This document shows, in pieces, positions 2,820-32,144 of a DNA stretch of 64,000 bases (positions are counted from its first letter, which is position 1; each line of letters opens with the position of its first letter). Below the pieces are notes generated by a model. That model saw only the letters and a program-made list of their open reading frames with translations. It did no database searches and was not told the origin of the DNA. Position numbers and translations under genes: made by a program. Source of the stretch: a virus (taxonomy: Duplodnaviria > Caudoviricetes); IMG/VR virus record IMGVR_UViG_2908416650_000002, positions 2,967 through 66,966 of that record; one strand, written 5' to 3'.

Positions 2820-2906
2820 GCCCGAATGGCGAAACTGGTAGACGCATGGGACTTAAAATCCCCCGCTCGTAAGGGCGTGCCGGTTCGATTCCGGCTTCGG
2901 GCACCA
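2820..2906 (+). tRNA. tRNA-Leu(UAA), 87 nt, prophage integration target
   Basis: GCCCGAA...TTCGGGC acceptor stem with ACCA end, CT-TAA-AA anticodon loop, long variable arm and GTTCGATTC T-loop. Confidence 0.97.
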
Positions 2907-2986: not shown

Positions 2987-4018
2987 TCACTTCGTCGGCG
3001 TAACTTTTTTGCCGATACGTTTGCGGATGTAGTTCTCTGTCATCACCACGGTTGTGTGCCCAAGCTGATCTCTGGCTTGCAGAATATCTCCGCTTGATTC
3101 CGCCTTATCGGTACCAGCCTTTGCGCGCAGGTCCCGCATCTGAAAGTCTGCCTTTTTTACGCCGGCAGCTTCTCTCGCAGCATCAAATCTCCCCCGTAAC
3201 ATACTGCTAGTCATAGGCTGCCCGTTGTCCATTACGATGAGTTTACTGGACCGGATTTTATGGCTGTCTTTCCTGGCCAGTATTCGGTCGATCACAACCT
3301 TCAACTCCCCAACGATTTCAATTCGTCGCTTGGCCTTGGTTTTTCCCTGCTGCACAGCAAGGCGATCCTCCCTGATATCGCGCTCATCCATTTTTAGGGT
3401 GTCAGCGATACGCTGACCTGTCAGGTAGAACAGATCGAGCGCGTCTTTTAGCGGCTGGTCTGCGTGCAAATACACCATCGCGAGCATTTCATCTTCGACG
3501 TAGATGTCACGTCCGCTTTCCTTATTGCCTTTAACACCGGCGCAGGGATTGGCCAAGGACGTGTAGCCGCTGGTCCTGGCGAAGTTCCAGATCGAGCTGA
3601 GCAATGCTTTCTCGCGATTTGCACGAACAGGTGCGGTCTTTCCTCGATGTCTCAAGTACTGGGCAACGTGCTGGGGCTCAATAGCTTCCAGCGGGGCGGG
3701 TGGGTCATTGAAGAAGGCAAGTAGCTGCTTCAGCTCTCTGGCGTTGTCTTTCTGCGTCGCTGGCGCTTTAGTTGGAACAACTTCCAGCATGTATTTTTCA
3801 GCGACATAGGCGAAAGTCAGTACATCCTGCGCCATGGCCTGGGATACACGGCTTTTTTCGAGCTTTGCATACTCCAAAATTGCCAGCCCGTAGTCCTTGC
3901 CCAATGGTATTTCTTTGCGTGGCGTCCCGCCTGTGTCGTAAAGGTAATACGTCGTGTCGCCACGCTTCCTTTCGCGTAACCGGGGAATGCTCCCAGGCCG
4001 GGTTGGTTTTCGTCCCAT
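2987..4018 (-). CDS. int: Tyrosine recombinase phage integrase
   Basis: TGQRIAD, QGKT, RDLRAK, LGH and ENY catalytic motifs, adjacent to attL. Confidence 0.95.
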   Translation of the reverse strand: MGRKPTRPGSIPRLRERKRGDTTYYLYDTGGTPRKEIPLGKDYGLAILEYAKLEKSRVSQAMAQDVLTFAYVAEKYMLEVVPTKAPATQKDNARELKQLLAFFNDPPAPLEAIEPQHVAQYLRHRGKTAPVRANREKALLSSIWNFARTSGYTSLANPCAGVKGNKESGRDIYVEDEMLAMVYLHADQPLKDALDLFYLTGQRIADTLKMDERDIREDRLAVQQGKTKAKRRIEIVGELKVVIDRILARKDSHKIRSSKLIVMDNGQPMTSSMLRGRFDAAREAAGVKKADFQMRDLRAKAGTDKAESSGDILQARDQLGHTTVVMTENYIRKRIGKKVTPTK

Positions 4019-5412: not shown

Positions 5413-6000
5413 TCATGGCGTCACCCGTGCGGCCGCGATTTCATCAAGGAGCGATTGCGGCAGAGATGCGGCGAACTCGCCTTCCGACCACGATAGTGGC
5501 TCAGACTGACAAATCATCTCGTTGAGCAATTCGAACGCTGCCAGCAACTGTTCGTCGCGTATCTCGCCGTCCTCCGGCAGATCGTCGCAGAAGTGGTCGG
5601 CCGGATCGATTTGGCTGGGATAGTTCGGTTCACAGATGCAGAGCTGCAGGTCCGCCAGATCGATATCGCTGTCGATAAGGTAGTCTCGGAGGCTGTCTTC
5701 ATCGAAGAAGTACTGGTCGCCATCGAAGATAACCAGCGGCTCCCCGGCCCAATCCTTGATAGGCATCGCAGCGAATTTAGCTTGGCGCCGAGCGTGGCGG
5801 CACGCATTGCAGGAACTGTTCACCTCGTAGATTGGGTGATCAGGGTTCACGTCGCAGCGGCGATGGGTGGCGCCGCAGTAGCGGGCAAGGTTCTCGTCGG
5901 CGCCGAAGAATCGCCCGTCGGCTGAAACCCAGCCTGTTACCGTTTTGAGGCTGGCTGCTTCTGGAGCATCGAACATGATGATTGGCTTTTGTGCAGTCAT
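5413..6000 (-). CDS. Phage hypothetical protein (Cys-containing, acidic C-terminus)
   Basis: 195-aa ORF with an AAGGA RBS in the leftward early operon. Confidence 0.75.
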   Translation of the reverse strand: MTAQKPIIMFDAPEAASLKTVTGWVSADGRFFGADENLARYCGATHRRCDVNPDHPIYEVNSSCNACRHARRQAKFAAMPIKDWAGEPLVIFDGDQYFFDEDSLRDYLIDSDIDLADLQLCICEPNYPSQIDPADHFCDDLPEDGEIRDEQLLAAFELLNEMICQSEPLSWSEGEFAASLPQSLLDEIAAARVTP

Positions 6001-6438
6001 GACTTCGTCCTTGCCGCTATAGCGGCTGACTTTGAAGGGGGAGGGGGTTATTTAAAATCGGCCTAGACGAGACCGTGGGATGTGCTAGAAATGACATGTC
6101 GCGCATGCATTTCAGATATTCGTTGTTGGGGTGCTGCGCGGCAGACGCTCTATTACTCCGTTGGAGCGGGACCTCCAGCTGTGGGCATTGATCGGTAGGC
6201 TGTCGCATTTAGCCGCGAGTTAAACAACTCCCTTCCTCTGGGCTACTAACTCAACGCCTTGGCCTGCCGGTCATCTCTTCTGATTCACTTCAAGCGGCCG
6301 CTGTTACCCGGTCATGGGTATTCACGAGCGCCAAAATGAAACGTTCATATGTTTCAATGTTCCCGTCAGCTCGCGGAGGAACCGCAGGGCTGATTTTCTA
6401 TTTCCCGATGTAATCGTTTCACCCAAAGGAGCTACACC

Positions 6439-7296
6439 ATGCAAGGAAGTATTAAGTTGAGAAATTTCGCGTTTCTGCTGATCCCGTTCGTTGCGGCCTG
6501 TACCACAACTGACCGAACCCGAGAGGGTGGGGCCCAGATTGAAAGCGCACCGCGCGTTCAGGCTGTTCAAGCAGTCCAATTCGATAACTGTTCAGTGGGG
6601 TGCCCAACAGGTGGCAGTCCGATGACGCTGAATCGCCAGTCGTACACGCTGAACAACAACGGTTCGACCAAGTTTGCGAACTGGGTCTCCTACAAAATCA
6701 CGAAGGAAACTCCGGCAAGCGGGCGCCCGCGCAACTGGAAGACCGATCCGGATATTCCCGCCGGTGAAACGCTCGATCCGGTGGACTACAACGGTGCCAA
6801 CGTTGCGCTCAAAGTTGACCGTGGCCACCAGGCCAACCTGGCTTCGATGGCAGGCGTTCCTGACTGGCAAACCCTCAACTATCTGTCGAACATCACCCCG
6901 CAAAAGGCTGACCTCAACCAGGGGCCCTGGGCGCGACTTGAGGACCAAGAGCGCAACCTCAGCAAAGAGGCGGGCGTTGATCAGGTGTTCGTCGCTACCG
7001 GGCCGCTCTATGAGCATTTCGTCGGCACGCTGCCAGGCACAAACAAGGTGCACACGATCCCTAGCGGGTACTGGAAAATCATCTTCGTCGGCAGCTCGCC
7101 AGAGGGTGGTGTCTATGCCTCGTTCGTGATGAACCAGGAGACACCAAAGGGCGCCAATTTCTGCGACTACCAAGTGACCGTGAATCAGATTGAGGAGCGA
7201 TCAGGCCTCACGTTCTGGAGCAATTTGCCTCAGGCCGTCCAGACAGCTTTGAAGTCGAAGCAAGGGCAATTGCCGGCGCGGATTGGCTGTAAGTAA
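6439..7296 (+). CDS. DNA/RNA non-specific endonuclease lipoprotein (Serratia NucA/NucM type)
   Basis: Lipobox VAAC, DRGH active-site motif, LSNITPQ, LNQGPW.RLE and IPSGYWK. Confidence 0.92.
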   Translation: MQGSIKLRNFAFLLIPFVAACTTTDRTREGGAQIESAPRVQAVQAVQFDNCSVGCPTGGSPMTLNRQSYTLNNNGSTKFANWVSYKITKETPASGRPRNWKTDPDIPAGETLDPVDYNGANVALKVDRGHQANLASMAGVPDWQTLNYLSNITPQKADLNQGPWARLEDQERNLSKEAGVDQVFVATGPLYEHFVGTLPGTNKVHTIPSGYWKIIFVGSSPEGGVYASFVMNQETPKGANFCDYQVTVNQIEERSGLTFWSNLPQAVQTALKSKQGQLPARIGCK

Positions 7297-7316
7297 ACAC
7301 TGCAATCAAGCACACG

Positions 7317-7345
7317 AGGCTGCCGGATTCGGCGGCCTTTTTTTT
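7317..7345 (+). terminator. Rho-independent terminator of the nuclease moron
   Basis: AGGCTGCCG-GATT-CGGCGGCCT stem-loop followed by a T run. Confidence 0.85.
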
Positions 7346-7369
7346 GTACTAGGATTTTGTAGATCCGCT

Positions 7370-7948
7370 TCATGCGGCCATCTGCTGCTGTTCTTGGCGT
7401 AGCGCCTGCTGGACCACTTGGATGATCCGCTCAAGGTAGGTGTAATCGGGGATTGGCTCAGTAGCATCGTTGGTCAAGTGCCACCACTCATGCCCGAAAA
7501 GCTTGGTCATCAGTTCGCTGTGCGCTCCGTGGAGATGGTCGATTGATGGCGATTCGCGCAGATCTTCTGCCTCATCGAACCGCTCGCGGGTCTCGTCGGC
7601 GCCATAACAAAACTGGCGGCGCTCTTTCAGGACGAGGCGCTGCGCTTCCCTTGCAAGCGCTTCACCACTGAACTGCCGTGGCCTCATCGCCTGGTCGAAG
7701 TAGCCGATGATGTAGCCGGTGCTCAGCTTGCAGAAGAACTGCCTGATGCTCAGACCATCCCACATGCCGCCCCAGTAGGCCGTCCAGCTCTTGCCCCAGC
7801 AACTGACGGTGATCTTTCCCTTGCATGGGGCCAGGTCCTCGAGGAAGACGGTGATCGGGTCAAGGTTCGGCGCGCCGGTGATAACTAGCTTGGTGACTGT
7901 TGATCGCTCTACCTGCAGCGGCGCGGTCGTTTTGTTTTCTGTAGGCAT
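7370..7948 (-). CDS. Phage hypothetical protein
   Basis: ORF containing LDPITVFLED...CWGKSWTAYWGGM, preceded by an AAGGA RBS. Confidence 0.75.
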   Translation of the reverse strand: MPTENKTTAPLQVERSTVTKLVITGAPNLDPITVFLEDLAPCKGKITVSCWGKSWTAYWGGMWDGLSIRQFFCKLSTGYIIGYFDQAMRPRQFSGEALAREAQRLVLKERRQFCYGADETRERFDEAEDLRESPSIDHLHGAHSELMTKLFGHEWWHLTNDATEPIPDYTYLERIIQVVQQALRQEQQQMAA

Positions 7949-8033
7949 GGGGAGTCCTTGCCGGGCCATGGCTGGGCGGTGGAGGTTATTAAGAGATCAA
8001 CTACAGTTCAGCGATCAGCCAAAGGAGATTGGT

Positions 8034-8285
8034 ATGAGCGTTACTGTCTGCGTTATATGTAGGGGCCGAGCTGAGGAGGGGTATCAGGTTGGACACTTTG
8101 TTGACTTCAAATGCCCGGACTGTGGGTTTTACTCAGTCAATCGTACGCTGCTTCGAGAGATGGAACGGTCGAAACAGCTGTTCAATGTTGAGCGTGCACG
8201 GCACTTTATTGCGGTCCATTCAAAATCAGGTAGTGTTGCGGCGATCGACCGGATCGAAGCAACATCTCACCAGTTGATAGCGTGA
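8034..8285 (+). CDS. Small Zn-finger hypothetical protein (moron)
   Basis: CVIC and CPDCG motifs with an AAGGAG RBS. Confidence 0.65.
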   Translation: MSVTVCVICRGRAEEGYQVGHFVDFKCPDCGFYSVNRTLLREMERSKQLFNVERARHFIAVHSKSGSVAAIDRIEATSHQLIA

Positions 8286-8334
8286 GTTATGCGCGGCCGG
8301 TGAGGCTGCGCGCCGCGCAGCAGGTACGAAATAA

Positions 8335-9465
8335 TTACAACTTCGGCTCAATTCTGGCCACGTAAGTTTTCAACTCTTCGTTCTTCACCTTACCGTGCAA
8401 CCCGTGATGGATTTCGCGGTGGCAGGCGGGGCAGATGGCACCTATGTAACGTGGATGGTCTAGGCCTCCATCTGATAATCGATTTACGTGGTGCGGCTCT
8501 AGGTATGGTGAGCCGTTTGTCTTCATAAAAGGCGCCGCTTTCTTACAGCTCTCACAGTTCCCGGCTGCCCTCTTTAAAACGTAATTGGAGATAGTTCTGC
8601 TGCGACGATATACGGTTCTGCGTGCCGATCCGCTCTCTCCAGCAGATCCTGCTTCCGCAGCCGCTAGAGCGCGCCTTCTCGCCTCGGCAAGTGACATAGT
8701 TGGATCTGGGGCTTCGTCTTCTCCTGAGAGCGTAGGGGAGTCGAGCTCGAGACCTACAGGGACAAGGTTGAACACAACTATTGCCCTGTCGTTACCAAGC
8801 TTGTCAGGGCCTCGGCGCCATTCATGGCTCGCACAGGTGTATTCGCCGAGGTACTTCTGGCCTAAACTTTTGCCGAGTATCTCGAAAACGTGCAGTGCTT
8901 TCCCCTGCTTCGAGTGCTCGAGAATTGCCAGGTTTCCTTTAGTCAGAGTCATATCACCGAGCTGGCCTTCGCCTGTGTAGCTGAAAACCTGCTCCTCGCT
9001 ATGAGAGTCGGTGTATCCGTACTGACCACCTGAGTCGCCGGTGAAAATGAATACCGCTGGGGCTTGAGCTGAGGGGGCAATTCCACTCTGGCGACTGCCT
9101 CCGAACAAATCGTGAATCTCAGTTTGCCGGTCATAAACCTGACCCGCCACAAAGCGCAGCTCTGGATCAGTTGACCGTTGCAGTTCTACGATTGTGTATC
9201 CGTGCCGCTTCAAATATCCGTTTGTGGGCTGACCACCTGAGAACAGTCCTACCGGCGTTCCAGTGGCCAAAGAAACTATTTTTTTTGCAGGGTATAAAGT
9301 GCTGTTCGCGCTGATTGCGTAGCGATGCGCTTGGTTTTCAGTCCAGCCCTTCCATTCGGGGGCGTGGCGAAATTTTTCATCGAACTGTTTTAGAGCTTGG
9401 TCCAGCTTTGCTTTTTTTACCGCGGGGATTTTCAAAGAAACGTCCTTGTGGGCAGCAGCATTCAT
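8335..9465 (-). CDS. SRA-like plus HNH endonuclease, McrA/ScoMcrA-like modification-dependent restriction enzyme
   Basis: Middle domain GGSRQSGI...YTGEGQLGDM...GNLAI resembles SRA. The C-terminus CESC...LEPHHV...GGLD...ICPACHREIH is an HNH domain. The start is uncertain (9465 or 9504). Confidence 0.8.
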   Translation of the reverse strand: MNAAAHKDVSLKIPAVKKAKLDQALKQFDEKFRHAPEWKGWTENQAHRYAISANSTLYPAKKIVSLATGTPVGLFSGGQPTNGYLKRHGYTIVELQRSTDPELRFVAGQVYDRQTEIHDLFGGSRQSGIAPSAQAPAVFIFTGDSGGQYGYTDSHSEEQVFSYTGEGQLGDMTLTKGNLAILEHSKQGKALHVFEILGKSLGQKYLGEYTCASHEWRRGPDKLGNDRAIVVFNLVPVGLELDSPTLSGEDEAPDPTMSLAEARRRALAAAEAGSAGESGSARRTVYRRSRTISNYVLKRAAGNCESCKKAAPFMKTNGSPYLEPHHVNRLSDGGLDHPRYIGAICPACHREIHHGLHGKVKNEELKTYVARIEPKL

Positions 9466-9515
9466 CAGATAGTCAATGCTCGCTCGCCCAGGCGGATGAC
9501 GCAATAGCGAAATGC

Positions 9516-9608
9516 TGGCTCAATCTCGGCGAACCAGGCGGCGCGCATGCCCAGCGGGTGCCAGGCCTGTGTCGCGGCCTCGATGGCGCTGCACACACTG
9601 CCCTAGGT
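9516..9608 (-). pseudogene. N-terminal remnant of a phage C5 DNA cytosine methyltransferase
   Basis: Translates as T*GSVCSAIEAATQAWHPLGMRAAWFAEIEP, matching the recalled motif I region (TYGSVCSGIEAA...W...WFAEIEPF). There is an in-frame TAG at 9603..9605 and the rest of the gene is absent. Confidence 0.8.
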
Positions 9609-9672
9609 GAGAAAATTTCTCCGGTCTGGCAGCATTGAGAATTCTCCAAAATAAAATCATGGATGTTTAGAA

Positions 9673-10392
9673 ATGTCAGAAGAAAAACCAGTTAATCCTT
9701 TTAAGAAACGATTAAGAGCTTCGCCTGAAGCAAGGAAGAGGATGGCGGAGCATCAAGCGTTATCGGCAGTAGACGACTTGTCTGCATGGAAGTCGATTTA
9801 TCAGCTTTCGATTGAGTTGCGGAACTTTGAAATATCCCAGTTGGTGCAAAGAAATAATTTTTTCATGATCTTTCAAGGTGTTTTGCTTGCAGGTATATGT
9901 CAATCGGCAGGGCAAATTCCCGTGGTTAGTATGGTTATTTGTATAGTTGGTGCTCTAGTTGCTCTACTTCAGGCTGGCATGGCCGCCGGGGCGAAGTATT
10001 GGCAGGAACATTGGGAGCTGAACACGACTACCTCAGAAAGCGCCATGGTAGAGCTGCTGCAACGGCATCGTGTGATTCGATATATAATGTCTAGACAGAA
10101 AATGTCTATCGATAAAGGTATAGAGAATAGACTTTTGAATCGTCAGGCCTTTGTTACCTTGTTCGGAGGGGATTCAAACAGGGAAAAAATTCGGGATGGG
10201 TTGAAAAAGAGCAGGCCAAAAGCTTTTCTGCTTAATGAGTTAATTATGATGAGATTCTCGACAAGCAGGATACCAATTTATGTCGGGATTGTGCTTGCTT
10301 TTGGGTGGGTTACTTTGTTTGTTTGCACTTTTCGAATTCCCGGTCTCGACCTGCACGTTTTGGAAAGCATAACTGGATTTAAGCAGAAATAG
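9673..10392 (+). CDS. AT-rich membrane protein moron (about 3 TM), candidate anti-phage effector
   Basis: ELRNFEISQLVQRNNFF followed by hydrophobic helices, opposite to the early operon. Confidence 0.75.
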   Translation: MSEEKPVNPFKKRLRASPEARKRMAEHQALSAVDDLSAWKSIYQLSIELRNFEISQLVQRNNFFMIFQGVLLAGICQSAGQIPVVSMVICIVGALVALLQAGMAAGAKYWQEHWELNTTTSESAMVELLQRHRVIRYIMSRQKMSIDKGIENRLLNRQAFVTLFGGDSNREKIRDGLKKSRPKAFLLNELIMMRFSTSRIPIYVGIVLAFGWVTLFVCTFRIPGLDLHVLESITGFKQK

Positions 10393-10422
10393 GCGTATAG
10401 CAGTTTAGTAGATGGGTTCGAA

Positions 10423-10821
10423 TCAGGCTGCCTGCTCTTGCTGCTCCAGAGGCTTCGGCGGCCACTCCGAAAAGCCCACCCGTGGAGCCTTCGTCTTCGG
10501 GTTGACTATCGTCTTGCCCTTGGCGTCCACCAACACGGCCTTGGCCCTGATCTGCATATCGCGGCACCTCAGCGTTGTGCGGGCCAGCTCAATGAACTGC
10601 TCGGCGAACTGCGGCGCATCGAACAGCGGCGAGAGCTGGCGAACCGTACCCCCCCCCATGATCTTTTCGGTGCGCTTGGCGACCAGCTTCAGCCATTCAG
10701 CTTCCGGTATCGGCTCGACGCCGCCAGGAGCCTTCGGGTTCTTCCGGGTGCCGGCCGTTTTCTTGCGGGCCTCGGTCTTGGCGACATCGAGGGTCATTCC
10801 AAACACAGCGAAGGTGCTCAT
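10423..10821 (-). CDS. Basic phage hypothetical protein
   Basis: 132-aa ORF with a GGAG RBS. Confidence 0.7.
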   Translation of the reverse strand: MSTFAVFGMTLDVAKTEARKKTAGTRKNPKAPGGVEPIPEAEWLKLVAKRTEKIMGGGTVRQLSPLFDAPQFAEQFIELARTTLRCRDMQIRAKAVLVDAKGKTIVNPKTKAPRVGFSEWPPKPLEQQEQAA

Positions 10822-10916
10822 GGGTTATCTCCAAGCGTGCGCCTGCATCGTCGGCTGGCGTGATTCGTTAATTTGAGGTATTAAAATGAGGTTTTTTTCA
10901 TGGAAAGGGGGGAGCA

Positions 10917-11816
10917 ATGGAGCATGGGCAATGCAAGTTGTGTGGTTCCGCTGGAGAGTTGAAACTTAGCCATTTCATACCGAAGTTCGTGGGGAAGTGG
11001 GTTAAAGAAACCTCCGCGACGGGATTTATACGATTTAACGGTGATATAAATAAAAGAGCGCAGGATATTGCAAAGGACTACTGGCTCTGTGGCGTTTGCG
11101 AGCAACTTTTTTCTGGCTGGGAACGTGAGTTCGCTAACAGGATATTTTACCCATTTGTAAAGGGTGAAGCTGATTCCGTTAGTTACGGTGATTGGCTTGC
11201 TAAATTCTGCGCGTCAATTAGCTGGCGCACTTTAAGTTACATGCGGCACTTAAATGTTAGAGGTGACACGGAGCAGAGCGAAAAGGAGGCGCTAGCACTT
11301 AACGGGCTTGCCAATTTTATATTGGGTAATTCAAAGAGCCCTGGCATCTATGAGCAGCACATTTTTCCATTGGAACCTATTGAAACTACGAACGCTGATG
11401 TCCCAGTCAATATAAATCGGTATTTTTTGAGAAATATGCATATGGATGTTCTCTCCAGTAGTGCTGGTGAGTTAATGATATATACAAAGATGCCAAAGTT
11501 TATAATTCTCGGGCTTGCCGGCCATTCCCAGTCAAAGCTGATGCGCGCAAGCAGAGTGTCAATCAAAGGAGGGAAAATTTCCCCTACTAGTTATTTTTGG
11601 CCGGATGGTTTTGCTCAGTACTTATTTGAAAAGGCCAAAAAAGTCTCAGATTTATACAAAGGTATGGCACCCGCGCAGCACGGCATTATCGAGAGGGCAC
11701 TTATGAAGAACCCAGATCGCGCCGCATCCTCAGGTACTATAAAAGCATTTCAGCATGATGTTGAAATGTTCGGACGCAAGGTTTTTCTGCCCGGCGATGG
11801 TACTAGCTCCGAATGA
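10917..11816 (+). CDS. AT-rich moron with an N-terminal Zn/HNH-like finger
   Basis: CKLC...SHFIPKF...LCGVCEQLFS motif. Confidence 0.75.
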   Translation: MEHGQCKLCGSAGELKLSHFIPKFVGKWVKETSATGFIRFNGDINKRAQDIAKDYWLCGVCEQLFSGWEREFANRIFYPFVKGEADSVSYGDWLAKFCASISWRTLSYMRHLNVRGDTEQSEKEALALNGLANFILGNSKSPGIYEQHIFPLEPIETTNADVPVNINRYFLRNMHMDVLSSSAGELMIYTKMPKFIILGLAGHSQSKLMRASRVSIKGGKISPTSYFWPDGFAQYLFEKAKKVSDLYKGMAPAQHGIIERALMKNPDRAASSGTIKAFQHDVEMFGRKVFLPGDGTSSE

Positions 11817-11934
11817 TATTCCCTGGTTTTTGAAAAAGTAAATTCATGCAGTGCCCAACACCATCAGCGATAGCAATTTGGTTTGATATGGGGTATTACG
11901 GGTGACCGGCATGGAGCCGGATCAAGGAGAGGAA

Positions 11935-12153
11935 ATGAGCTACTTAAAAGATGTCTCAACAGGCTTAAAGCCGTTCAGCCCATTGACCACAGAAGACCTT
12001 TGTTTCGAATGTGGTGAGCTGATTACTGCTGGAGCGGTCCGATACGACGGATACGCCACTCCGGAAGAGCTTAAGTGCCTCTACCTTCATCCTAGCTGTG
12101 CGGCAATCGTTGGGCAGCGCTTGATTACAGACGGTTACCCCAACCGCCGCTGA
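11935..12153 (+). CDS. Small Zn-binding hypothetical protein
   Basis: CFECG and HPSC motifs with a GAGG RBS. Confidence 0.55.
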   Translation: MSYLKDVSTGLKPFSPLTTEDLCFECGELITAGAVRYDGYATPEELKCLYLHPSCAAIVGQRLITDGYPNRR

Positions 12154-12179
12154 TCATTTTTAAAAGAGTGTTAACCGCC

Positions 12180-12782
12180 TCAGGCTGTGATGCGCTCGCC
12201 AATCACCTTGGTGGTGAAGCTCACCGAATACTCGGTTGTCAACTCGAACAGGCCGTTGCAGGTGTCGCATTCCATGTTCTTGTCGCCGTAGTCCTCGGTT
12301 TCAATGTGGATCACGGTGGCGCAGTGCGGGCATTTGCATTTGTCCAGGTTGCGATAATCCCACTCGTCATAATCGGTCTCGGCGACCCTGGCCAGCGCTG
12401 CGGCTTTCGCAACGGCGTCTTCTGCGTCCTGGCAAGGTTTGCAGGTGAAGCCGTCAGGATGGCCCCACGGTGTTTCCGTGAGCTTCGAGCGGTGAGTGCT
12501 GCACAGGCGGCAAACATTATGTTTGTCGCAAACCGAGTAGCTGTACTTCTCACCGGTTCCGTTGCACTTGGCGCAACCAGAAACCCAGTACCAGGCGCCA
12601 TCGATTCGCTCGGCGTACAGGCCGTTTTCCGGGGGGCGCAGGCTGACTTCAGGCAGGTCAGTAGTGGTACGGTGAAATCTGTGATGATCCGCCCCGTTCC
12701 ACACGTTGAGGCTGCCGTTACGTTGGCGCTGGGTCCACTCACCCGGGATCTCCGGGATCAGGATCTTCGTGTTCTTGTCCAT
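12180..12782 (-). CDS. Cys-rich multi-Zn-finger phage protein
   Basis: Several CxxC pairs and an AGGAG RBS. Confidence 0.75.
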   Translation of the reverse strand: MDKNTKILIPEIPGEWTQRQRNGSLNVWNGADHHRFHRTTTDLPEVSLRPPENGLYAERIDGAWYWVSGCAKCNGTGEKYSYSVCDKHNVCRLCSTHRSKLTETPWGHPDGFTCKPCQDAEDAVAKAAALARVAETDYDEWDYRNLDKCKCPHCATVIHIETEDYGDKNMECDTCNGLFELTTEYSVSFTTKVIGERITA

Positions 12783-12891
12783 GGATTATCTCCTGTCAGG
12801 CGCCGCCCTCCGTTACCGGTGGTGGCAATTTGGTTTGGGGTAGGGTATTTAGTCGCGTCGGCAAGCGAACGAATTAACTCAGGGATAGGTA

Positions 12892-13416
12892 ATGCAAGCT
12901 CCTACAGACAATCTTTATAAATTCATGGCAATTGCAGGGTTAATCTGTTTTTTGTTTTTTTACTTCGATTACAGCAAAAGATACGTGTTGTTGAACGAGA
13001 GCATCAACTCTGCTCGCATGGATACTGCTGTTATAAGCGCTAAAATCGAGGCGTATCGAGGGAAACAGTCCTATGTCCAGCAAAGAATTAAAGAGGCTGA
13101 GCGCGACAATCTAAGTCTTGAAGTTTATACGAGTATTCGAAAGTCTTGGGAGGATAACTTGCCAGGCCTTGACGAGCTTGTCTTGCTACAAGCGAAGAAT
13201 GTGCAGAGCGTTGAAATAATTAAGGAGTCCCGAGCTGAGCTTGATTGGCTATTCCGGATCTATCTAGGTCTCGGGATGACTTCGCTTCTCCTATGTTTGT
13301 ACGGTATGTATCTTTGGTATTTCAGGACCCAAAGATTTTTAGATTTAAAGGAGAAAAATGTCGTTCCTCCACGTACGAAGTCTAAATTTCGTGAGACGTT
13401 GCCTAACAGAAAGTAA
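12892..13416 (+). CDS. AT-rich 2-TM membrane protein moron
   Basis: N- and C-terminal TM helices flank a coiled-coil loop. Confidence 0.75.
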   Translation: MQAPTDNLYKFMAIAGLICFLFFYFDYSKRYVLLNESINSARMDTAVISAKIEAYRGKQSYVQQRIKEAERDNLSLEVYTSIRKSWEDNLPGLDELVLLQAKNVQSVEIIKESRAELDWLFRIYLGLGMTSLLLCLYGMYLWYFRTQRFLDLKEKNVVPPRTKSKFRETLPNRK

Positions 13417-13492
13417 AATGGAGTGCGCCGGATAGTTGCAAGCTGTCAGCTCTCTATGTGTTGGTGATAGATATTGGGATTCCTCGATACTT

Positions 13493-13960
13493 TCATTCGC
13501 TCATTTTTAGCGATTCAGCAAAGCCTGCATTTCGTAATTTGCGCGCCACGGTTTCGGATATCTCATAACCGTGGCGCTTAATTTCGAAGAGTGGCGATGA
13601 CTTCTCGGCGCCAAGCGAGTGGGCATGTGCGATCAGTCGCCAGATGGTAGCCCGGTCCTTTGTTTCGCCCAGCTCGGCAGTGAACGTTGCCAACCGGTCA
13701 CGCATTCCCTGGCGGAAGTAGTGGCGGATGATGTCGGACGGCCCTTTGACTTTCGGCGGCGCCGCCGGCATATCCTCGGCCCGGCCATTCAGCACCAGCA
13801 GCTGCACCGCCTCGCTGACTTCTTCGATCTCATGCCAGCGCATCAACTCGTCGAGCATCTGCCGGGTGCCGTACGGGACCGTGTGCCGCAATTCCTGCTC
13901 GCCCAGCTCCTGCCGCTTCTCGGCAAGCTTGGCCGTGCGTTCCTTCTGTTCGGCTGCCAT
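13493..13960 (-). CDS. Phage hypothetical protein (possible DNA-binding regulator)
   Basis: 155-aa ORF with a GAGG RBS. Confidence 0.7.
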   Translation of the reverse strand: MAAEQKERTAKLAEKRQELGEQELRHTVPYGTRQMLDELMRWHEIEEVSEAVQLLVLNGRAEDMPAAPPKVKGPSDIIRHYFRQGMRDRLATFTAELGETKDRATIWRLIAHAHSLGAEKSSPLFEIKRHGYEISETVARKLRNAGFAESLKMSE

Positions 13961-14029
13961 GGCCTACCTCTTCTATTCCGCTGGCCGGCAGTGCGAGCCA
14001 GGTTTGACGTTTGCGTTGCTGGGTGCGGG

Positions 14030-30653: not shown

Positions 30654-32144
30654 ATGAAGCCCGAGCACTTGAAGCTGCTCCGGGACAAGCGCTGGCGGTT
30701 GAACAACCTCTACTTCATCACGGACAAGCAGGGCAAGAAGGTCCGCTTCCGGATGACGGACGAGCAGATCGAGTACTTCGATGGGATGCACACCCGCAAC
30801 ATCATCCTGAAGGCCCGGCAGCTTGGCTTCACCACCGAGTGCTGCATCATCCAGCTCGACGCTGCGCTGTTCGAATCAGCCAAGTGTGCCCTGATCGCTC
30901 ACACCCTGAACGACGCCAAGCGCCTGTTTCGGGAGAAGGTCAAATATGCCTACGACAACCTTCCTGCTGAGATACGCGCCGCCAACCCGGCGAGTAACGA
31001 TGCTGCTGGTGAGCTGGTGTTCAGCAAGGGCGGATCGCTCTACGTCAGCATCTCCTTCCGGGGCGGCACGCTGCGTTACCTGCACGTATCTGAGTTCGGG
31101 AAGATATGCGCCAAGTTCCCGCACAAGGCCCGCGAGATCGTCACCGGTGCCTTCGAGGCTGTCGCCACCGATTGTTTCGTCACGATTGAATCGACGGCGG
31201 AGGGCCGGGCAGGCTACTTCTTCGATTACTCGCAGAGCGCTGAACGCCAGCAACTGGCCGGCGTGCCCCTGGGCCTGCTGGACTGGAAGTTTTTCTTCTT
31301 CTCCTGGTGGAAGAACAAGGCCTACTGGCTTGACCCGACTGACGTGGTCATCCCGCAGCGCCTGACCGACTACTTCAACGAGCTGTTCGCGAAGCACGGC
31401 ATTGACACGAACCCAGGCCAGCGAGCCTGGTACGCCGCCAAGGAGAAGACTCTCGGCGACGACATGAAGCGGGAATACCCGTCACTGCCGGCGGAAGCCT
31501 TCCAGCAGTCGATCGAGGGCGCCTACTACGCCAAGCAGTTCACCAAGCTGTATGGCGCGCAGAGGATCGGCCCGCTACCGGACAACAGTCATCTGCCGGT
31601 GCACACAATATGGGATATCGGCGTCGGCGACTCTACGGCTATCTGGTTCGTTCGGATCGTCGGCGAGGAATACCACGTCATCGACTTCTACGAGAACAGC
31701 GGTGAAGGCCTGCGGCACTACATGAAGGTGCTCAAGGATCGCAAGTACACGTATGGCGATCACTGGGGCCCGCACGACATCGACAACCGCGAATTCGGTA
31801 GCGACGGCAAGACCCGCCGCGAACTGGCCCGGGAGGGCTACGAGATCGACGGGCAAAAATACAGCCTCAAGTTCAGCGTTGTTCCAAAGCTCGGCATCGA
31901 CGAAGGCATTGAGCAGGTTCGGGAGATCCTTCCGGCCTGTGCCTTCGATGAGTCCAAGTGCGAACTGGGTATTTCCTGCCTGGAGAACTACCGAAAGGAG
32001 TGGGACGACAAGCGGGGCTGCTGGAAAGACAAACCACTTCACGACTGGTCATCGCACGGCGCGGACGCCTTCCGCTACTTCGCCGTATCGATGGGCCGAC
32101 GCAAACGCACAGGCGGAACACGCCGAATTGGAGGCTTGGCCTGA
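30654..32144 (+). CDS. Terminase large subunit
   Basis: LKARQLGFTT, LHVSE, IESTAEG, WDIGVGD and HGADAFRY motifs. Confidence 0.95.
   Translation: MKPEHLKLLRDKRWRLNNLYFITDKQGKKVRFRMTDEQIEYFDGMHTRNIILKARQLGFTTECCIIQLDAALFESAKCALIAHTLNDAKRLFREKVKYAYDNLPAEIRAANPASNDAAGELVFSKGGSLYVSISFRGGTLRYLHVSEFGKICAKFPHKAREIVTGAFEAVATDCFVTIESTAEGRAGYFFDYSQSAERQQLAGVPLGLLDWKFFFFSWWKNKAYWLDPTDVVIPQRLTDYFNELFAKHGIDTNPGQRAWYAAKEKTLGDDMKREYPSLPAEAFQQSIEGAYYAKQFTKLYGAQRIGPLPDNSHLPVHTIWDIGVGDSTAIWFVRIVGEEYHVIDFYENSGEGLRHYMKVLKDRKYTYGDHWGPHDIDNREFGSDGKTRRELAREGYEIDGQKYSLKFSVVPKLGIDEGIEQVREILPACAFDESKCELGISCLENYRKEWDDKRGCWKDKPLHDWSSHGADAFRYFAVSMGRRKRTGGTRRIGGLA

Follow-up and report, generated by a model that had tools for sequence, protein, structure and literature searches.

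Introduction

The nucleases Sco5333/ScoA3IV, Tbis1/TbiR51I and TagI, in which a C-terminal HNH domain with zinc-binding cysteines comes after an SRA reader, bind or cut 5-methylcytosine (5mC) DNA in many contexts and are toxic in dcm+ cells (PMC4333417, PMC6212794). More specifically, attempts to establish Sco5333 and Tbis1 in dcm+ E. coli fail (PMC4333417), and TagI cuts both 5mC and 5-hydroxymethylcytosine (5hmC) DNA in several sequence contexts (PMC6212794). Here we analyze a predicted nuclease with the same order of domains, encoded in a 64,000-nucleotide (nt) stretch of caudovirus DNA (IMG/VR record IMGVR_UViG_2908416650_000002, positions 2,967 to 66,966; hereafter the window, to whose numbering all unprefixed coordinates refer). 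The window represents a lambdoid-type prophage within a 6.89-Mb single-contig Pseudomonas genome (G000), and directly upstream of its nuclease gene, on the same strand, lies the wreck of a C5-cytosine methyltransferase (MTase) gene. We find that MTase and nuclease are alternative occupants of one prophage slot, and we propose that the nuclease cassette has taken the place of the MTase body. Relative to the described family members, the window protein adds an N-terminal domain of ~110 amino acids (aa), and its gene is carried by a phage within an MTase pseudogene; the nuclease activity is a prediction.

EcoKMcrA is encoded by a prophage, e14. Together with ScoMcrA (PDB 5zmm), EcoKMcrA (PDB 6ghc) provides the best sequence and fold matches of the window nuclease. 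The sequence similarity of TagI to the window protein is too low for detection by phmmer or profile search. We found a weak hint of a match to the head domain of ScoMcrA and no match to the region between head and SRA, where we presume the ScoMcrA sulfur-binding domain (SBD) to lie. The reader domain of EcoKMcrA is of a different kind and not an SRA (PMC7145662), and the available descriptions of ScoMcrA and EcoKMcrA do not present either as nested in an MTase gene.

The conflict logic that we consider for the window locus is shared by McrBC, which opposes the establishment of incoming MTase genes (PMC2614495), and by PcaRCI and PcaRCII, in which a methyl-dependent nuclease is set against an MTase (PMC2993543). 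Those systems are separate loci in bacterial chromosomes or plasmids, whereas here the two genes are alternative alleles of one phage slot and the nuclease lies in the remains of the MTase. Like the window nuclease, the HNH protein HHPV4I is virus-borne; it is modification-dependent and has been proposed to exclude other viruses (PMC10101028). It differs in having a winged helix and in coming from an archaeal virus, and its abstract mentions no MTase pseudogene (PMC10101028).

A methyltransferase remnant upstream of the nuclease gene

Positions 9517..9610 of the minus strand (94 nt) hold a dead MTase 5' remnant, with C5-cytosine MTase homology and several lesions. Translation of 9650..9465 on this strand gives ...RRNFLT, a stop, GSVCSAIEAATQAWHPLGMRAAWFAEIEPAFRYCVIRLGERALTI and a further stop, and the 31 codons at 9608..9516 that it includes read T, a stop and then GSVCSAIEAATQAWHPLGMRAAWFAEIEP. 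The initial annotation, made from the letters alone, had singled out these 31 codons as an MTase relic with TAG in place of Tyr and Ala in place of the motif-I Gly. Translation and comparison with intact genes bear this out: the TAG stands at 9605..9603 and the Ala codon (GCC) at 9587..9585, and since all 12 intact MTases examined in register keep a Tyr codon (TAC/TAT) and a motif-I Gly codon (GGC/GGA) at these positions, both changes are derived lesions. Because homology with the intact genes begins only at 9610, three codons past their ATG, the original start and ribosome-binding site have been lost from the relic. Everything beyond ...AEIEP is likewise missing, which by the C5-MTase motif numbering that we assume places the cut after motif II.

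Homology searches also upheld the assignment to MTases. When the 508-aa intact MTase of a relative (L016 4318..5844; PF00145 119 bits) served as tblastn query, its sole match in the host genome was 9611..9504 (E 6.4e-8); the rest of this MTase was absent from the whole 6.9-Mb genome by tblastn, all other matches having E>3. On viral contigs, eight full-length MTase genes have 5' ends whose DNA matches the relic at 84-94% identity over 92-95 nt, and two further MTase genes, cut by contig ends, match it over 67 and 95 nt. The relic protein shares 29 of 31 residues with five viral-contig MTases (four full-length frames and one cut by a contig end), and three of the aligned full-length genes score 119-124 bits (two of the 508-aa type) or 82 bits (733-aa type) against PF00145. 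Judged by these alignments, the relic is a true MTase 5' end, far beyond chance. It retains homology to the N-terminal S-adenosylmethionine (AdoMet)-binding segment of C5-MTases and is not a complete enzyme, given the TAG, the end of homology at 9517 and the absence of any further MTase sequence from window and genome; the alignments thus mark it as a pseudogene fragment rather than a member enzyme.

The homology ends at 9517/9516 in all aligned MTase genes except one (9518). Intact MTase genes remain highly conserved across and past this point, so that the junction is a break inside the gene; we had also considered it as a natural border between alternative cassettes, a possibility ruled out by the same conservation.

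Other MTase sequences were also noted. In a different setting, L019 4809-5219 on the minus strand (G007:C19) holds another wrecked 508-type MTase, a 136-aa frame in which ~60 N-terminal residues are joined to the last ~45, i.e., an internal deletion. Sequencing run X19 contains a nearly identical nuclease prophage together with a lower-depth contig that carries an MTase 5' end (window region 9549-9610) with start and Tyr codon intact. The host genome has one copy of the 9549-9610 region and lacks this second 5' end, and the latter may reflect a mixed sample or a second prophage in one cell.

The nuclease gene, its start and its predicted specificity

The nuclease gene occupies 8335..9465 on the minus strand (376 codons from the ATG at 9465, in a reading frame open to 9504). 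Between the relic junction and this ATG runs a leader (9466..9516, minus strand) that shows no homology to MTases. It is conserved from cassette to cassette, with 0-3 mismatches per 51 nt against six close relatives and 10-11 against three others. An alternative start, TTG at 9435..9433 behind AAGGA at 9447..9443, would give 366 codons, and it is probably the true one; the AAGGA-N7-TTG arrangement (9447..9433) is kept in homologs that lack the ATG.

This region bears on an explanation that we regard as very improbable indeed, namely, that assembly errors account for the TAG and the Gly-to-Ala change and that an MTase-derived peptide or upstream open reading frame is made and matters for nuclease expression. 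Consistent with it, three related loci (L025, L029 and L031) have an open frame of 50 codons that starts at the MTase ATG and ends at a TGA overlapping the nuclease ATG, and the leader from 9516 to 9466 is better conserved than third codon positions. Against it, the window and six other loci have lost the frame in different ways, by stops in L028 and L030 and by frameshifts in L032, L033, L037 and L041; L030 has ATT in place of the ATG, which more distant homologs lack. As to assembly errors, the same TAG recurs in L028, and the nearly identical X19 contig covers the site with no difference among the matches listed. Translational coupling through the TGATG overlap at 9467..9463 was rejected on the same grounds, i.e., a variously broken frame and an unconserved ATG next to a conserved AAGGA-N7-TTG.

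With residues numbered from the ATG, the product divides into an N-terminal domain (~9432..9136), an SRA domain (~9123..8746) and an HNH domain (~8568..8338), all on the minus strand. That the gene is SRA-HNH-like had been claimed from its translation, and database comparisons agree. By phmmer, its C-terminus matches the EcoKMcrA HNH domain (E 1.7e-17), and its middle and C-terminus match the SRA and HNH domains of ScoMcrA (SRA domain E 3e-4); a profile of 26 homologs improves the HNH match to E 2e-23, and PADLOC assigns the protein to mREase_IV (E 1.3e-18). The Pfam scores fall below the cut-offs (SAD_SRA, 18.6 versus 30.7 bits; HNH, 19.5 versus 21.4 bits). An AlphaFold model of moderate quality (predicted local distance difference test [pLDDT] 72.6, predicted template modeling score [pTM] 0.40) retrieved ScoMcrA (E 2e-16), its SBD-SRA part (E 2e-8) and TagI (E 7e-8) in Foldseek searches, along with plant and animal SRA domains, including SUVH5 SRA chains (target-normalized TM-score 0.62-0.66, E ~1e-5). 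The model and the ScoMcrA sequence match together identify an SRA (SAD/YDG) fold, and the C-terminus has the catalytic His/Asn and zinc Cys pairs of a beta-beta-alpha-metal HNH domain: C304, C307, H325, H326, C345, C348, H349 and H353 are invariant in the 26 homologs, and N328 is nearly so. We conclude that the gene encodes a predicted three-domain SRA-HNH nuclease of the type IV kind, resembling ScoMcrA and TagI.

In the SRA part, Y149/Y151, D153 and Y163-T164-G165 are invariant in the same homologs and align with Y-A-D ... A-Y-V-G of ScoMcrA; the mapping comes from sequence alignment, and the spacing is unlike that of TagI. The flipped-cytosine pocket of TagI is formed by two aromatic walls, a carboxylate and a Y-T motif (PMC6212794), to which the window residues appear to correspond as a candidate pocket. 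A specificity for 5mC is predicted.

The cue could be something other than 5mC/5hmC (m6A, phosphorothioate or another hypermodified base), or the enzyme could be independent of modification, in which case its position would say nothing about its target. HHPV4I, an SRA-wH-HNH protein, depends on m6A, though not through its SRA (PMC10101028), and ScoMcrA also reads phosphorothioate through its separate SBD (PDB 5zmm; PMC7461809); the N-terminal domain of the window protein (~110 aa) has no assigned function, and C5-MTase genes share genomes with the nuclease (see below). We nevertheless consider this improbable. The candidate pocket residues are invariant, the TagI carboxylate contact favors modified cytosine and excludes purines (PMC6212794), and among known folds the middle domain best matches SRA domains that bind 5mC. 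Nothing in the query matches the ScoMcrA residues that presumably form the SBD.

At codon positions 1+2 the gene is 0.96-0.98 identical to nine close relatives, far above its third-position identity (0.88-0.91 versus six of them, 0.74-0.76 versus three further ones), and the intact gene is under purifying selection. Contigs of three RNA libraries from one study span 8340..9534 at ~96% identity; such contigs are no evidence of a transcript, and DNA may have been carried over.

Methyltransferase and nuclease as alternative occupants of one slot

The relic and nuclease lie between a 132-aa gene (p132, phrog_20424; 10423..10821, minus strand) as left anchor and a 199-aa gene (p199, phrog_3451; 7370..7969, minus strand) as right anchor. 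The right edge of the variable slot is a short boundary that includes the start of the 199-aa gene (7928..7984, minus strand) and is 93-95% identical between otherwise different phages. We surveyed 80 viral contigs anchored on p132. An MTase of the 508-aa type adjoins p132 in 14 of them (12 with open frames of at least 371 aa, 2 cut by the contig end), and one of the 733-aa type or related to it is present in 13 (12 with open frames of at least 313 aa). Thus, 27/80 slots hold an MTase of either type, and 2/80 hold relic plus nuclease, in agreement with the initial claim that the nuclease stands in the place of the MTase. In the remaining 51 slots (3 with <1.5 kb downstream) neither gene was found, so the slot also takes unrelated cargo. 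Among bacterial genomes, the two anchor genes are adjacent in G024, and in G007 an intact 733-aa MTase fills the slot.

We then considered viral records as a whole. An intact PF00145 gene was found in 0/17 nuclease-bearing records, four of which had a C-terminal fragment only; three MTase-bearing records served as positive controls of this search. Conversely, the nuclease was found in 0/10 MTase-bearing records. MTase and nuclease are therefore alternative occupants of one prophage slot.

Age of the relic-nuclease unit and probable exchange within the relic

Among 22 loci with a nuclease homolog at 49-97% identity (17 viral, 5 from genomes), tblastn detected the relic in 11, and 5 more showed it in decayed form by eye. 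The junction is identical in all relic-bearing loci compared at the DNA level, the most diverged having been seen in translation, and the same junction and relic stand beside nuclease genes down to ~70% protein identity. On this evidence the relic-nuclease unit is old and common to many Pseudomonas phages. Its lesions differ by locus, as described above, and relic identity is 0.84-0.90 versus six close relatives and 0.78-0.88 versus three further ones.

At the other end, a 3' MTase remnant (the last 20-94 codons) directly follows the nuclease stop codon in 10/22 loci by tblastn; eight of these remnants belong to the 733-aa type, the other two to the 508-aa type. G113 encodes a nuclease 97% identical to that of the window and has both relic and 3' remnant; there the 3' remnant (L165 6965-7246; G113:C1:3542988-3543200) lies behind the nuclease in a frame reported open for 504 aa, which may run on into the next gene. 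The identity of the 3' remnants to intact 733-type genes (0.80-0.89) follows no clear pattern and their junction points vary; they may stem from serial deletions or from separate events. A single simple insertion fails to account for this arrangement, in which a 5' relic of the 508-aa type is combined mostly with 3' remnants of the 733-aa type. In the group of the window, an 83-aa convergent gene (Zn-ribbon-like; 8034..8285, plus strand) takes the place of the 3' remnant. It adjoins intact MTases in relatives and is hence a conserved slot neighbor, not nuclease cargo. More distant nuclease homologs (52-59% identity) occur in 22 of 401 sampled genomes of the genus, and no MTase remnant lies within 1.5 kb of them; they may represent a non-phage source of the gene.

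Several observations suggest that the cassette has moved by recombination. Compared with L030, the window shows 10/51 mismatches in the 5' part of the relic and 1/44, 0/51 and 8/600 in the next three segments (10/51 versus 9/695 over the next 695 nt; Fisher p 5e-8), followed by 48/531 in the 3' half of the nuclease gene. Three Ser-codon haplotypes, i.e., (AGY,AGC), (TCN,TCN) and (TCT,AGC-like), occur among the relics, and the same three are found among the 12 intact MTases; free decay of one captured allele would produce a different picture from this one, which spans only ~50 nt. The flanks tell a similar story. The p132 DNA of the window is 88-94% identical to that of phages with an intact MTase or with no nuclease or MTase match downstream (84-86% in four others), including ~90-91% to the MTase-bearing phages L064, L068, L070 and L071, and its p199 is 88% identical to that of L061, likewise MTase-bearing. 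By contrast, p132 is only 71-79% identical to the nuclease phages L049 and L050, to both of which the cassette is 93.6% identical. With flanks nearest MTase phages and a cassette nearest phages with other flanks, replacement of an MTase in the window lineage is plausible. To that extent the proposed switch of the locus from methylase to nuclease is supported; it is not private to this phage, as the junction shared down to ~70% identity shows.

A proposed mechanism

We consider it fairly likely (probability about 0.68) that the body of an MTase gene was replaced by an SRA-HNH cassette whose product cuts the methylated DNA of related phages, and that the cassette spreads by recombination. The slot is a variable position in the early-left operon of a lambdoid Pseudomonas prophage and holds a C5-cytosine MTase in many relatives. 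In the window and a family of related phages, a ScoMcrA/TagI-like cassette (N-terminal domain, SRA reader of modified cytosine and HNH nuclease) would have supplanted the MTase body, leaving the first 94 nt as a decaying relic and, in many relatives, the last 20-94 codons as well. The SRA pocket would receive a flipped-out 5mC or 5hmC, with the HNH domain cutting nearby, so that a phage or lysogen that does not methylate its own DNA would be spared and the DNA of self-methylating relatives destroyed; a nuclease lysogen may kill MTase-bearing phages. The cassette would enter new phage backgrounds by repeated homologous exchange in the conserved MTase 5' end, the other crossover lying in MTase 3' remnants or conserved boundary sequences, and every such exchange would overwrite an MTase allele. 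Independent insertions at one identical site would yield the same pattern and lead to the same conclusion.

A bolder version, which we hold to be quite unlikely, would make the cassette a methylation-triggered gene drive among temperate phages. Methylated DNA of a relative that bears the MTase, whether incoming or co-resident, would be cut by the nuclease; the nuclease prophage would serve as template for repair of the breaks, its homology arms being the conserved boundary sequences and the two MTase remnants (5' and 3'), and surviving recombinants would carry the nuclease over the former MTase. The displaced allele would thereby write its own targeting mark, and the relic would be a working recombination arm instead of debris. 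T-even phages carry free-standing homing endonuclease genes, with marker exclusion, break-induced spread into relatives and co-conversion of flanks. Spread of that kind would give mosaics like that of the window versus L030. Homing enzymes recognize the DNA sequence of the cognate locus, whereas here the cue would be methylation written by the displaced allele. The signs are indirect, namely, mosaic breakpoints in relic and gene and several MTase haplotypes among the relics.

Coexistence of nuclease and methyltransferases in whole genomes

The initial annotation had called the two activities mutually incompatible and expected intact MTase and nuclease to exclude each other. Exclusion stands for the viral records described above and fails in whole genomes. 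In the 401 genomes of the genus (nuclease homolog full-length at E 1e-100 or better; PF00145 at E 1e-8 or better), PF00145 was present in 7/24 nuclease carriers versus 215/377 others (Fisher p 0.010; the related genomes do not count as independent, and the 215 include two unpublished ones, G195 and G143). The reading frames of the MTases look intact in all seven PF00145-positive carriers, and the PF00145 threshold missed the own MTase of the host genome. This MTase lies in a second prophage (G000:C1:2326139..2338117, locus L166) with integrase, a RecT homolog and an SMC-like ATPase; it is an apparently intact C5-MTase of 654 aa (PF00145 48 bits) with AdoMet-binding, Pro-Cys, ENV, QxRxR and GNAVPP motifs, which we take to be motifs I, IV, VI, VIII and X. 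Its gene adjoins one for a protein resembling phosphoadenosine phosphosulfate (PAPS) reductase. G113 has two MTase genes, one for a 65% homolog of the 654-aa protein and one for an intact 733-type MTase, and five carriers of 52-59% nuclease homologs have MTase frames of 312-390 aa. Nuclease and MTase are thus not mutually exclusive genome-wide, and because the host genome, G113 and five other carriers hold MTase genes, any antagonism is not absolute. Coexistence of an MTase and a methyl-dependent nuclease is possible when one partner is silenced (PMC8989522); here it could be achieved by repression of prophage early genes, by target context or by silencing as in Pectobacterium. What keeps the two from killing the cell is the question that the second prophage of the host genome raises.

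These data also bear on a simpler account, to which we give a modest chance and which we judge unlikely: the slot is an accessory-gene hotspot in which an ordinary defense gene happened to land in an MTase, the remnant having no role and the two genes no conflict. The many slots with neither gene, the other low-GC cargo genes nearby, the coexistence just described and the 22 genomes whose 52-59% homologs have no MTase remnants beside them would all fit such an incidental scar. Harder to accommodate are the MTase remnants on both sides of the nuclease in many phages, the absence of an intact MTase from all 17 nuclease-bearing viral records, the lower frequency of PF00145 in carriers (with the reservations given for that test) and the toxicity of family members in dcm+ cells (PMC4333417).

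Against the replacement of an MTase by a methylation-dependent nuclease, the following points have to be weighed: the slots with neither gene; the MTases in the second prophage, in G113 and in the five carriers of distant homologs; the different types of 5' relic and most 3' remnants; the short span of the haplotype argument; the sub-cut-off Pfam scores and the moderate quality of the model; and the m6A dependence of HHPV4I. To these we add a scan of 7300..11000 for sigma-70-like promoters, which returned 0 sites versus 2.4 expected by chance, and the fact that the 5mC-dependent function is a prediction.

Setting of the locus in the prophage

Landmarks of the prophage include a tRNA-Leu gene (2820..2906), the integrase gene (2987..4018, minus strand) and the large terminase gene (30654..32144, plus strand). 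Relic and nuclease are situated in the minus-strand early operon adjoining the integrase (early-left operon), which is broken up by low-GC plus-strand genes. Three such genes were noted, at 9673-10392, 10917-11816 (a 299-aa protein, phrog_26326) and 12892-13416 (a predicted membrane protein of 174 aa), and 0/3 matched PADLOC models. The first (9673..10392, plus strand) lies between the left anchor and the relic and encodes a membrane protein (Pfam 8xMP, PF24838, E 3.6e-19); sequence common to other phages starts at 9610, i.e., only past this gene. A literature search for 8xMP returned nothing but unrelated PDB codes. Farther on, 6439-7296 (plus strand) encodes a prophage-borne DNA/RNA non-specific endonuclease (PF01223, E 2.2e-46) whose N-terminus appears hydrophobic from the translation.

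The left anchor contains a G9 homopolymer at 10649-10657 (minus strand). A run of 7-11 G occupies the same place in 29/80 viral p132 homologs, 16 of them frame-broken and 13 full length, and the nearly identical X19 contig has one extra base in it; the variation could be homopolymer sequencing error or slipped-strand phase variation. Boundary stretches of 40-70 nt (12780-12848, 11883-11930, 7928-7984 and 6008-6046) are 90-100% identical between phages with differing neighbor genes and may be crossover points for module exchange. That they are copies of one element was ruled out by mutual alignment and by a direct-repeat search of 5500..14000. A megablast search of 7300..10900 against deposited phage genomes returned 2 records only, which matched 180 nt of the 199-aa gene.

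Implications

Neither type IV nucleases nor phage MTases are new, and the clash of DNA methylation with methyl-dependent cutting is known as well. We found no published account of a phage slot in which one allele is a nuclease gene lying within an MTase pseudogene; supplementary lists of SRA-HNH homologs (PMC4333417, PMC6765204, PMC7461809) could include Pseudomonas phage members. Apparently new here are an MTase and a nuclease as alleles of one phage slot, the nuclease lying inside the MTase wreck as a unit shared by many phages, and the wreck itself, within which recombination with intact MTase alleles seems to take place. Protection against host restriction is the role usually ascribed to phage MTases. 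At this locus, phages appear to swap a gene that marks DNA for a gene that cuts marked DNA. If this is true, the locus would be a small natural model of how phages fight one another over epigenetic marks, in which defense cassettes can be seen overwriting counter-defense genes.

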